A stretch of DNA of 29,891 nt from an uncultured bacterium (GCA_964596185.1 CAZQUE010000055.1:1-29891), one strand, 5' to 3'; positions 26,450 through 28,475 are shown, numbered from the stretch's first letter. Program-made: numbers and translations. The notes: generated from the sequence alone by a model not told the origin.

Positions 26450-27847
26450 ATGGCAATAGATATACTTGTAGTAGATGATGAGGAGATGATTCGCTGGACG
26501 CTCAAGGAAGCGCTCGAGAGCGAAGGGTACAATCTGAAGACTTTCGAGAACGGTCGAGAGTTTTTGAGTTATTTCAATGCCAATGGCGGGGATATAGTTT
26601 TGCTTGATGTCAGGCTTCCTGACAGCAACGGGCTCGACCTTCTGCTCGAAGTTACGCGTATTGACCCTGATGCGATCGTGGTGATCATGACTGCGTTCGG
26701 AGATGTTGAAACAGCTGTTAATGCAATGAAGCGCGGGGCTTTCGACTATATTTCGAAGCCGTACAGTCTTGAAGAAGTCAGTTTGCTGATCAAGAAGATC
26801 GTTCAGGCAAATTTGCTCAAGAGCCAGCTGCATCATTATCAGGAACGACTGGAAAACCAGTTTTCGCGCATATTGGGCGATAATCAGAAAATGAAGCAGT
26901 TGCGCGAGCATATTCAAATGGCGGCGCGTACAGACCGTACGACGGTATTGATTCGCGGTGAATCCGGAACCGGTAAGGAGCTTGTGGCCAGGCAGATTCA
27001 CTTTCAGAGCGCCAGGGCAGACAAGCCGTTTATTGACGTCAATGCCGCCGCGGTCAGCAGCACTTTGCTTGAATCAGAGCTTTTCGGTCACGAAAAAGGA
27101 GCTTTTACCGACGCGCAGAAGCAGAAGAAAGGCTTGTTCGAACTCGCCAACGGTGGCACTCTGTTTTTGGATGAAATTGGAGATCTTGATCCTTCTTTGC
27201 AGGTAAAATTGCTGCGGGTATTGCAGGAGCGCAAGTTTCGAAGAGTTGGCGGAACTTCGGACATTCATGTCGACGTGAGAATCATTTCGGCTACCAATGC
27301 TGATCTGGAAAAAGCCATCGAAGACGGCAGACTGCGTCAGGATCTTTTTTATCGCCTCAATGTTTTTACCATCAATTTGCCGCCCTTGCGTGACCGTCGC
27401 GACGATATCATGCTGCTGGCCAAGTTTTTCCTTGAAGAATTCAGGAAAGAATTTTCGAAAGACATTAGCGGCTTTCGCGAAGATACTTGTCGCGTGCTTG
27501 AAAGCTACAATTTCCCGGGCAACGTAAGAGAATTGCGCAACATCGTCGAGCGTGCCACACTTCTTGAGACTTCAGCGCAGATTCGCCCTTCGAGTTTGCC
27601 AGAGGAATTAAAAAAGGCAGCCGAGCTCGAGTGCGTCGCTTATGATCCTGGCGAGAAGCGTCCCTGGCAGTTGCCGGGCTTCAACTTTAAAGACTACATC
27701 GATTCGGTTGAGAAGCAGATTGTCATAGAAGTGATGAACGAAGCAGAGGGTAAGAAGACTAAGGCGGCGGATATGCTGGGTTTGACCCGGTTTGCTCTCA
27801 GGCATCAATTAAAGAAACACGACCTTGAAAATGATTCTGAAAAATGA
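26450..27847 (+). CDS. Sigma-54-dependent Fis-family response regulator (NtrC-like: REC + AAA+ + HTH)
   Basis: REC domain: VVDDEE, LLDVRLPD, SKPY. GESGTGKE Walker A, GAFTDA (GAFTGA variant), LFLDEIGDL Walker B, RVLQERKFRRVGG, C-terminal HTH. The start is likely ATG 26450, 3 nt after the upstream stop. Confidence 0.9.
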   Translation: MAIDILVVDDEEMIRWTLKEALESEGYNLKTFENGREFLSYFNANGGDIVLLDVRLPDSNGLDLLLEVTRIDPDAIVVIMTAFGDVETAVNAMKRGAFDYISKPYSLEEVSLLIKKIVQANLLKSQLHHYQERLENQFSRILGDNQKMKQLREHIQMAARTDRTTVLIRGESGTGKELVARQIHFQSARADKPFIDVNAAAVSSTLLESELFGHEKGAFTDAQKQKKGLFELANGGTLFLDEIGDLDPSLQVKLLRVLQERKFRRVGGTSDIHVDVRIISATNADLEKAIEDGRLRQDLFYRLNVFTINLPPLRDRRDDIMLLAKFFLEEFRKEFSKDISGFREDTCRVLESYNFPGNVRELRNIVERATLLETSAQIRPSSLPEELKKAAELECVAYDPGEKRPWQLPGFNFKDYIDSVEKQIVIEVMNEAEGKKTKAADMLGLTRFALRHQLKKHDLENDSEK

Positions 27848-27877
27848 TGAAAATTTTCACTGTCAACTTTTGTAATC

Positions 27878-27922
27878 TGTGTTATATTTACACATGGGTA
27901 CCCTCTGTGTGAAATTTGCACC
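27878..27922 (+). promoter_or_regulatory. Two TGTG-N9-CAC(A) dyad sites (candidate bEBP upstream activator sequences)
   Basis: TGTGTTATATTTACACA at 27878-27894 and TGTGTGAAATTTGCACC at 27906-27922. Their centres are about 28 bp apart and about 60-90 bp upstream of the -24/-12 element. Confidence 0.3.
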
Positions 27923-27965
27923 AGCGAATCATTCGGAAAGTTCCCAATAAACCAGAATCAGGGCC

Positions 27966-27981
27966 TGGCATAAAAATTGCT
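27966..27981 (+). promoter_or_regulatory. Sigma-54 (-24/-12) promoter TGGCAT-N5-TTGCT
   Basis: TGGCATAAAAATTGCT matches TGGCAC-N5-TTGCW with exact GG...GC spacing. It lies about 45 nt upstream of the ptsN-like ATG. Confidence 0.55.
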
Positions 27982-28025
27982 TGTTTAGTTGTTAAGCGTC
28001 ATAAGTTAGGCAAGGAGAAACAGCT

Positions 28026-28475
28026 ATGATATCAGAATTACTTCAAGACAGTTTTATTGATCTTCAACTCGACGTAAATGACAAGGCATCCGCAATTGAC
28101 AAACTTTCGGGTATGCTTTGTACATCGGGCAAGGTCAGTGATCATGGACACTTCGTCAGTGCTGTTCTCGAAAGAGAGAAACTTGGCAGTACAGCAATCG
28201 GTGCAGGCATCGCCATTCCTCATGCTCGTGCCAATACAGTTAATGAAGTTTCAATAGCTTTTGCCCGCTCTGGTTCAGGTATCGATTTCAATTCAGTTGA
28301 CGGTGACCCGGTTCACCTGATTTTCCTGCTGGCCGCTCCGGTTGAATCTGGCAGTCTCTACCTCAAACTGCTTGCTAGAATCTCAAGGCTGTTGCGCTAT
28401 CAGGATCTGATCGAAGACCTCAAAAAAGCCAAAAGCAAAGAAGAAGTCATTAAGATTATCGCTGCAAAAGAATAA
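28026..28475 (+). CDS. ptsN: PTS EIIA type-2 (fructose/mannitol family), PtsN/EIIA-Ntr-like
   Basis: AAGGAG SD. GAGIAIPHARA active-site His region. About 150-aa size and layout typical of EIIA-Ntr. Confidence 0.8.
   Translation: MISELLQDSFIDLQLDVNDKASAIDKLSGMLCTSGKVSDHGHFVSAVLEREKLGSTAIGAGIAIPHARANTVNEVSIAFARSGSGIDFNSVDGDPVHLIFLLAAPVESGSLYLKLLARISRLLRYQDLIEDLKKAKSKEEVIKIIAAKE

Follow-up and report, generated by a model that had tools for sequence, protein, structure and literature searches.

A Conserved Predicted Sigma-54-Dependent Unit for a Second PtsN-Like EIIA and an RsbW-Like Protein in Candidatus Riflebacteria

Gene Organization of the Locus

We analyzed a 29,891-nucleotide stretch of DNA from an uncultured bacterium (GCA_964596185.1 CAZQUE010000055.1:1-29891), hereafter the window, focusing on positions 26450-28475. 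Here, the gene of a bacterial enhancer-binding protein (bEBP), the activator class for sigma-54, is followed by a gene encoding a stand-alone EIIA protein of the phosphotransferase system (PTS), and the spacer between them carries a predicted -24/-12 promoter and two upstream dyads. Proteins from metagenome-assembled genomes (MAGs) of Candidatus Riflebacteria and Ozemobacteraceae share 74-99% identity with the EIIA, and the exact EIIA protein is also present on three short metagenome contigs. The window thus belongs to Candidatus Riflebacteria, an uncultivated phylum. An open reading frame (ORF) listing, combined with Pfam and NCBIfam scans, placed the relevant genes in a long same-strand run. 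The coordinates given for the bEBP and EIIA genes in a preliminary description of this DNA proved exact. The central features are as follows.

26450-27847, plus strand: bEBP (sigma-54 activator) gene, with Response_reg, Sigma54_activat, AAA_lid_14, and HTH_8 domains
27848-28025: bEBP-EIIA intergenic spacer, 178 nt
27846-27860, no strand assigned: possible third activator site in degenerate form, GATGAAAATTTTCAC, lying 33 bp 5' of dyad 1
27878-27894, no strand assigned: dyad 1, distal upstream activating sequence (UAS) site, TGTGTTATATTTACACA, centered at about -106
27906-27921, no strand assigned: dyad 2, proximal UAS site, TGTGTGAAATTTGCAC, centered at about -78 and 28 bp from dyad 1
27966-27981, plus strand: predicted sigma-54 -24/-12 promoter, TGGCATAAAAATTGCT, with GG at 27967-27968 and GC at 27979-27980
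28012-28018, plus strand: ribosome-binding site AAGGAGA, read from the sequence, 7 nt ahead of the EIIA ATG
28026-28475, plus strand: stand-alone EIIA (PTS_EIIA_2), 149 aa

A Conserved -24/-12 Element Upstream of EIIA

A search of both strands of the window for TGGCAY-N5-TTGCW found the promoter TGGCATAAAAATTGCT and nothing else, where 0.08 matches were expected; at least one match appeared in 7 of 100 shuffles of the window. The promoter has one mismatch to the TGGCAC-N5-TTGCW-like core, and its GG and GC doublets are exactly 10 bp apart.

For comparison, we selected one genome per GTDB species, which yielded 22 Riflebacteria loci (L004-L025), or 23 with the window. A TGGCAY-N5-NTGC element lies 49-62 nt 5' of the EIIA ATG in all 23, and TGG-N9-TGC is invariant among them. 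Over the 382.5 kb of Riflebacteria loci, the promoter pattern matched the 23 upstream regions and one further position. The pattern was absent upstream of EIIA in other phyla (0 of 57 loci) and upstream of Riflebacteria paralogues linked to hpf (0 of 2 loci, L083 and L086), and it was found on 11 further metagenome contigs in the metagenome-wide scan described below. The -24/-12 element of the preliminary description is borne out by this combination of uniqueness in the window and a constant position in every locus. The lone extra match, TGGCATGTTTTTTGCG (L024, 15621-15636, plus strand), is intergenic, lies approximately 125 nt ahead of a V/A-type ATPase operon in a single locus, and is compatible with chance.

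Taking C27980 as position -12, transcription is predicted to start near position 27992, which would give a leader of 34 nt to the EIIA ATG. The AGGAG of the ribosome-binding site is conserved across the aligned upstream regions.

Paired Dyads at Enhancer Distance

Within the window, TGTG-N9-CAC occurs solely at 27878-27893 and 27906-27921. With 3 strand hits where 1.96 were expected, the dyad count for the whole window does not reach significance alone; the notable feature is that both sites fall within one 178-nt spacer. The possible third site, GATGAAAATTTTCAC, overlaps the bEBP stop codon and has only its right half-site intact in the window, and six relatives (L006, L007, L010, L011, L012, and L024) carry a full third GTG-N9-CAC site at the same spacing of 32-33 bp.

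All 23 sequences have one to three GTG-N9-CAC dyads upstream of the promoter. Two or three are present in every locus except L013, which ends at a contig edge, and L021. The upstream regions, 4.8 kb in total, hold 52 of the 85 dyads, a density of 10.8 versus 0.087 per kb (approximately 123-fold). The two dyads at enhancer distance reported in the preliminary description, at about -106 and -78, are therefore conserved in relatives. That description also proposed a search for further promoters and dyads; in the 382.5-kb set, this returned the one additional promoter match given above and no paired dyads outside the upstream regions.

When all trinucleotide-gap-trinucleotide patterns were counted, only TGG-N9-TGC and GTG-N9-CAC were present in all 21 non-redundant upstream regions, while patterns in the shuffled control reached a maximum of 11 of 21. 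Spacers from different clades resist alignment outside the motifs, yet the motifs themselves keep their register. These observations bear on the possibility that the motifs are chance matches, or are conserved by recent common ancestry alone. The 7 shuffles with a promoter match and the non-significant dyad count of the window would agree with such a view, but the unalignable flanks, the 23 of 23 upstream regions against one match elsewhere, the shuffle control of the gapped patterns, and the absence of the promoter from the 59 control loci effectively refute it, and we consider it extremely improbable.

The consensus of 47 dyads is tGTGy-(A/T)7-rCAC, with invariant arms and variable spacers. 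This pattern is what a protein-binding site, rather than an RNA stem, would be expected to show. An RNA element in the spacer was considered and rejected: there was no Rfam match at E ≤ 1, the spacer folded no better than its shuffles (z-score -1.06), and the invariant dyad arms showed no compensatory change or covariation.

The metagenome-wide scan used the strict composite UAS of the Rifleibacterium subclade (dyad-N4-GTAC-N5-dyad), which looser targets would escape. It returned 54 loci, 11 of which had A/T-rich spacers. All 11 are in bEBP-to-EIIA spacers with the promoter 44-55 nt downstream, and EIIA itself is visible in 10 of them (L102 stops short). The remaining 43 looked like GC-rich chance or repeat matches and were discarded as candidate targets of the composite UAS.

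Two other elements lie in the spacer. A GTAC core, often TGTACC, is located 1-5 nt past dyad 1 in the window (27895-27905) and in L005-L012, L016, L020, and L024. In another clade, the core is found just upstream of the -24 element, as GTTGTACCAG. It could represent an extended contact or the site of a second factor. The other element, from a consensus scan, overlaps dyad 1.

27860-27888, plus strand: sigma-70-like element CTGTCA-17-TATATT with a TG extension

The -10-like spacer of this element (TGnTATWWT within dyad 1) is conserved solely in the Rifleibacterium subclade. Speculatively, the element may be a basal promoter that is occluded by activator binding.

The NtrC-Family Activator and Its Neighbor

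The bEBP comprises a receiver (REC) domain (PF00072, E 2.6e-27), a Sigma54_activat domain (PF00158, E 4e-72), AAA_lid_14, and HTH_8 (PF02954, E 5.8e-9). The REC residues D9/D10, D53, T81, and K103 are present, and D53 aligns with the acceptor position of NtrC4. The Walker A motif reads GESGTGKE. The closest structure is Aquifex NtrC4 (4l4u, E 4e-99), and NtrC1 is also near. The bEBP falls below every NCBIfam equivalog cut-off (AtoC, the best, 486.5 versus 714 bits; NtrC 432.7 versus 558.6), and we therefore describe it as a member of the NtrC family with no named orthologue.

The loop that contacts sigma-54 is GAFTDA, which is invariant in 20 bEBP orthologues. GAFTDA is among the motif variants that keep an activator functional, and it occurs in DVU2106, which regulates sigma-54-dependent operons of Desulfovibrio (PMC4641369). 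Among the 20 orthologues there is almost no variation in the recognition helix, RFALRHQLKKH, which matches the invariance of the dyad arms. The bEBP gene adjoins EIIA in 19 of 22 loci. Based on this adjacency and co-conservation, the bEBP appears to be the protein that binds the upstream dyads.

Alternatively, the sigma-54 promoter may be real and the dyads bound by another regulator, of the CRP/FNR type or a repressor, with a different bEBP activating the promoter and the adjacent one acting elsewhere. The consensus CRP site is TGTGA-N6-TCACA, and the dyads resemble it with a spacer longer by one base. Furthermore, L014 and L015 have no bEBP gene nearby, and dyad 1 overlaps the sigma-70-like -10 element in one subclade. 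Against this, a sigma-54 promoter requires a bEBP, and the dyads are the sole other elements conserved in all upstream regions; their two or three copies at a typical UAS distance suit NtrC-type oligomerization; the adjacent bEBP has an invariant helix-turn-helix and a conserved place in 19 of 22 loci; and no CRP-family gene is linked. We regard this alternative as unlikely and retain the adjacent bEBP as the probable dyad-binding protein.

Two genes upstream of the bEBP gene belong to the conserved neighborhood.

23800-24786, plus strand: Era gene (ORF listing with Pfam and NCBIfam scans)
24831-26447, plus strand: membrane-anchored HEAT-repeat protein, 538 aa (HEAT_2, E 3e-15)

The order DUF3048-Era-HEAT-bEBP-EIIA-ORF143-ndk, in which ORF143 is the RsbW-like gene described below, is retained in 19 of 22 loci; one locus ends at a contig edge. 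In L014 and L015, the EIIA-ORF143 pair lies in another neighborhood where the activator gene is not adjacent, and the promoter and dyads are still present. A histidine kinase gene is found neither in the window nor among the syntenic genes. The preliminary description called the locus a self-contained module, and this proves wrong: no sensor kinase, rpoN, EI, or HPr gene is linked, and the activator is not adjacent in these two loci.

The HEAT-repeat gene lies directly 5' of the bEBP gene in all loci that reach that far. Its stop codon is 2 nt ahead of the bEBP start, and the two genes are translationally coupled. In this protein, a membrane helix at the N-terminus is accompanied by an acidic linker and a conserved domain of approximately 200 aa. 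This N-terminal domain had no sequence match in Pfam or the PDB, and a nucleotide-cyclase-like motif considered within it was unsupported by profile searches of the same databases. A single-sequence AlphaFold2 (AF2) model had a predicted local distance difference test (pLDDT) score of 45 and was unusable. The protein is a candidate accessory or sensor partner of the activator. In Candidatus Rifleibacterium amylolyticum CH46 (L012, 6435-7741), approximately 1.3 kb of inserted DNA splits the HEAT-protein gene.

Sigma-54 in the Lineage

No rpoN gene lies in the window. The contig start of L014, from a Riflebacteria-like MAG whose EIIA is 88% identical, encodes an RpoN C-terminus with an ARRTVAKYR box. 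This 60-aa fragment gave five matches when used as a query, none of them full-length; its closest database relative, P0122, is annotated as sigma-54 from Candidatus Rifleibacterium sp. Sigma-54 genes, as judged from these sequences, are present in the phylum. The absence of rpoN, which the preliminary description had named as incompatible with its proposal, is thus not seen at the phylum level.

EIIA as a Second, PtsN-Like Copy

The EIIA protein matches PTS_EIIA_2 (PF00359) with E 1.4e-39 and carries the phosphorylation motif GIAIPH, with His66 predicted to be phosphorylatable. Its GAGIAIPHAR segment aligns with GQGVAIPHGR of Neisseria PtsN (2a0j), and the closest solved structures are all PtsN proteins. 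Within the locus, conservation is highest for EIIA, with a median identity of 89.6% and a minimum of 81% among 22 orthologues; the corresponding value for Era and Ndk is approximately 64%. It fails both PtsN equivalog models (TIGR01419, 85.5 bits against a cut-off of 138.7; NF008145, 69 against 221). The term PtsN-like in the preliminary description is accordingly justified by the PTS_EIIA_2 fold with its GIAIPH motif, the nearest structures, and the stand-alone arrangement, but not by the curated PtsN cut-off.

Riflebacteria also have a second EIIA of 151 aa, 54% identical to the window protein, which follows hpf in the cluster hprK-cofD(yvcK)-whiA-asnB-hpf-EIIA-secA (L083, 3869-13282; L086, 3989-13283). 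This paralogue has the same NCBIfam profile as the window EIIA and, at 93-97 bits, is also under the PtsN cut-off, so that on sequence grounds membership in the PtsN equivalog is not established for either copy. The paralogue thus occupies the place that is canonical for ptsN, next to hpf. An rpoN gene beside it was looked for as well, and the cluster runs from hprK to secA without one. The window EIIA gene follows the bEBP gene and has no linkage to rpoN or hpf. As the hpf-linked paralogue is kept, the window EIIA would be an extra sigma-54-controlled copy, not the only regulatory EIIA of the lineage. This qualifies the earlier proposal that sigma-54 controls the regulatory PTS: the promoter and dyads are conserved throughout the phylum, but the controlled EIIA is an additional copy beside the hpf-linked one. 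EI and HPr are not linked to EIIA, either in the window or among the syntenic genes, and neither was found in the DNA examined; hprK alone was seen in the phylum.

The EIIA could also be an ordinary fructose-type sugar PTS component, within a catabolic operon resembling the LevR-controlled PTS operons. The generic NCBIfam fruA IIA-domain model is passed (118 versus 103.5), in keeping with the failed PtsN equivalog, and the source annotations name the protein "fructose-specific IIA". However, no EIIB, EIIC, PTS permease, or sugar-catabolic gene is linked in the 22 orthologous loci, and the window also lacks EIIB, EIIC, and PTS permease genes. The neighbors of EIIA are instead the RsbW-like protein and ndk, the nearest solved structures are all PtsN, the paralogue adjoins hpf as PtsN does, and the activator is of the NtrC type without PRD or EII domains. 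A sugar-transport role therefore seems quite unlikely.

An RsbW-Like Protein, ndk, and the Extent of the Unit

Three features follow EIIA.

28518-28949, plus strand: RsbW/SpoIIAB-fold protein (ORF143), 143 aa, predicted non-catalytic
28953-29420, plus strand: ndk, nucleoside diphosphate kinase (NDK, E 3.8e-55)
29446-29471, plus strand: intrinsic terminator, CTCTCC-CAGGTGC-GGAGAG followed by T7

The window ORF143 has no Pfam hit, and PF13581 is recorded on four orthologues. Its AF2 model (pLDDT 82.6; predicted template modeling score, pTM, 0.80) gave a Foldseek list whose top 17 entries are all anti-sigma kinases (RsbW, SpoIIAB, and UsfX; E 1e-7 to 1e-4), including RsbW 6m37 at E 1.4e-7. The family profile matched Bacillus subtilis RsbW with E 3.7e-7. 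In the alignment with RsbW, E51 is kept, the N-box Asn is replaced by Ala55 (variable among orthologues), and the G1 box has a four-residue deletion where RsbW has EGDS. Owing to the loss of the N-box Asn and the G1 box, ORF143 is predicted not to bind ATP and to be non-catalytic.

An ORF143 family member lies 3' of EIIA in all but one of the 23 loci, and the loci of other phyla have none. The exception is the most divergent locus, L021 (nHGRbin4, 10450-10717), where EIIA and ndk have no RsbW-like gene between them; this locus also shows a single exact dyad and the most divergent activator helix-turn-helix. The family has 36 representatives among 1.84 billion clusters, and all named members are Riflebacteria "hypothetical proteins". 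No gene for a STAS-domain antagonist or a target sigma factor was found in the window or the 22 loci.

The assignment of ndk is supported by NF001908 (199 bits versus a cut-off of 155) as well as by PF00334, and the gene has the same position in 18 of 22 loci. From the gene order and the short gaps (42 nt between EIIA and ORF143, 3 nt between ORF143 and ndk), EIIA, the RsbW-like gene, and ndk are most likely co-transcribed as a three-gene operon. The unit would therefore not end with EIIA at 28475, as first described, but continue through the RsbW-fold gene and ndk to the terminator at 29446-29471.

The operon might instead be transcribed mainly by sigma-70, either by read-through from Era-HEAT-bEBP or from the extended -10-like element, with sigma-54 contributing in some particular circumstance alone. 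In that case, the bound activator would shut off P1 and turn on P2, the arrangement known from glnAp1/glnAp2. The stretch from the bEBP gene to EIIA contains no terminator-like site, the CTGTCA-17-TATATT element with its TG lies at 27860-27888, and the unit contains the housekeeping gene ndk. On the other side, the -10-like spacer is limited to the Rifleibacterium subclade, while all clades share the dyad arms and the -24/-12 element, and sigma-70 transcription would complement the sigma-54 explanation rather than replace it. We consider predominant sigma-70 transcription a possibility, although a doubtful one.

Proposed Mechanism

Taken together, we consider it probable that an NtrC-type enhancer-dependent transcription unit drives EIIA, the RsbW-like gene, and ndk. 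That the promoter and dyads travel with the EIIA-RsbW-like pair even without an adjacent bEBP (L014 and L015) counts in favor of this reading. The bEBP, an orphan response regulator, would be phosphorylated on D53 by an unlinked kinase. Its dimers would then bind dyads of the conserved form tGTGy-W7-rCAC, two of them strong and possibly a third, weak one, at about -78, -106, and -139. The dimers would form an ATPase ring, contact the sigma-54 holoenzyme at TGGCAT-N5-TTGCT (27966-27981), and open the promoter. Transcription would begin near 27992 and span EIIA, the RsbW-like gene, and ndk, ending at 29446-29471. The EIIA, as a second lineage-specific paralogue, is most likely a His66-phosphorylated regulator and not a sugar-transport component, and the kinase-dead RsbW-like protein is most likely its partner or co-effector.

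Several points weigh against this interpretation. The whole case is built in silico. The evidence assigning the activator to the dyads consists of adjacency and co-conservation, and since the recognition helix and the dyad arms are both invariant, a covariation test is impossible. The 28-bp spacing of the dyads is a non-integral number of helical turns, and the dyads resemble the CRP-type TGTGA-N6-TCACA plus one spacer base. The rpoN evidence comes from relatives in the phylum. Finally, ndk is a housekeeping gene, which argues for extra basal transcription, supplied by read-through from bEBP, with no terminator in between, or by the sigma-70-like element that overlaps dyad 1.

A more elaborate scheme, which we offer as speculation and think rather unlikely, would have the duplicated EIIA act as a STAS-like antagonist that binds or releases the kinase-dead RsbW-like protein, which in turn would sequester a sigma factor or another regulator. 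Phosphorylation of His66 would report phosphoenolpyruvate (PEP)/HPr status, that is, carbon and energy supply, and two-component and PTS signals would be joined in a Riflebacteria-specific cascade from sigma-54 to an alternative sigma factor. The co-transcribed Ndk, likewise a phospho-His enzyme, might serve to supply or buffer the phosphoryl state.

So far, sigma-54 and the "nitrogen" PTS have been connected mostly through ptsN-rpoN gene linkage and through PtsN effects on some sigma-54 promoters. If the proposed unit is real, the dependency is reversed: a bEBP and sigma-54 set when an extra PtsN-like regulator is made, and with it an anti-sigma-like protein that is confined to this lineage and apparently kinase-dead. 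The EIIA/RsbW-like pair is thus a candidate for a new protein-protein signaling module. For a phylum without a cultured model, the activator, operator consensus, promoter, and targets also form a testable regulon prediction.

Other Features of the Window

Three further observations concern genes outside the conserved neighborhood. An 845-aa protein encoded at 1830-4367 (plus strand) matches the Major Vault Protein shoulder (PF11978, E 4.6e-29) and a Vault_3 repeat, with weak Band_7/SPFH similarity, and looks like a bacterial vault-protein-like gene product. The adjoining gene at 4551-5138 (minus strand) encodes an ORF6N-domain protein (KilA-N/antirepressor-like) and may mark a small mobile or phage-derived insert. 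A tandem pair of 333-aa paralogues of the galactose-1-phosphate uridylyltransferase/HIT type is encoded at 5363-6364 and 6382-7383 (minus strand), and one of the two has additional matches to DUF4921 and DUF4931_N.

Comparison with Known Systems

The closest parallels are NtrC/glnAp2 and NtrC4/NtrC1, which share the REC-AAA+-HTH_8 architecture and multiple dyads approximately 80-140 bp upstream of a GG-N10-GC promoter. At glnA, the sigma-70 element glnAp1 is overlapped by the UAS. The sigma-70-like element here may be overlapped in the same way, and by analogy the locus could have a glnAp1/p2-like dual promoter. In contrast to NtrC-type systems, no kinase gene is adjacent, and the conserved neighbor encodes a HEAT-repeat membrane protein. 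In contrast to NtrC itself, the loop is GAFTDA rather than GAFTGA, the site is GTG-N9-CAC rather than TGCACC-N5-GGTGCA, and the target is not nitrogen assimilation.

The proteobacterial rpoN-hpf-ptsN arrangement, part of a conserved rpoN/PTS-Ntr/hpf context (PMC3162934), shares with the present locus a stand-alone EIIA of the same Pfam family, the GIAIPH motif, and a functional tie to sigma-54. The wiring is reversed here: sigma-54 would transcribe EIIA, which is not co-transcribed with rpoN, and Riflebacteria keep a separate hpf-EIIA pair near hprK. As a control, the same scan as that of the Riflebacteria loci showed an RpoN box just upstream of EIIA in 22 proteobacterial or acidobacterial loci, and in no Riflebacteria locus. 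The difference from Proteobacteria noted in the preliminary description is upheld, as a bEBP-dependent sigma-54 promoter before a stand-alone EIIA is conserved across the phylum. Our literature searches returned no sigma-54 promoter before ptsN and no treatment of regulation in Riflebacteria.

In Firmicutes, sigma-54-dependent transcription of PTS EII genes is directed by LevR, ManR, and CelR (PMC3162934). The activators in question are built with PRD and EIIA/EIIB domains, and the operons under their control encode mannose-family sugar transporters and include EIIB, EIIC, and EIID, whereas the activator here is of the REC type and the operon contains no transporter.

ORF143 shares its fold and size with the kinases of the RsbW-RsbV and SpoIIAB-SpoIIAA pairs, and likewise lies beside a small phosphorylatable protein. 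Unlike RsbW and SpoIIAB, it lacks the N-box Asn and the G1 box, and its gene is linked to neither a sigma factor gene nor one for a PP2C phosphatase. Its neighbor has the His-phosphorylated EIIA fold instead of a Ser-phosphorylated STAS domain. The literature we searched showed no relevant link of PtsN or EIIA-Ntr with RsbW-type proteins, leaving the pairing of EIIA with a pseudo-RsbW without a counterpart.

In the Borrelia Rrp2-RpoN-RpoS cascade, as proposed here, a response-regulator bEBP and sigma-54 switch on a global-regulator gene and not an enzyme pathway. That cascade is directed at a sigma factor gene, and Rrp2 reportedly acts independently of a UAS. In the Riflebacteria unit, the targets would instead be an EIIA and an anti-sigma-like protein. 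A link to Sigma-S is mentioned in the PTS literature (PMC3162934). Across these comparisons, the regulatory mechanism is conventional, textbook NtrC-type and introduces no new principle; what is new, and gives the locus its value, is the target and the wiring.

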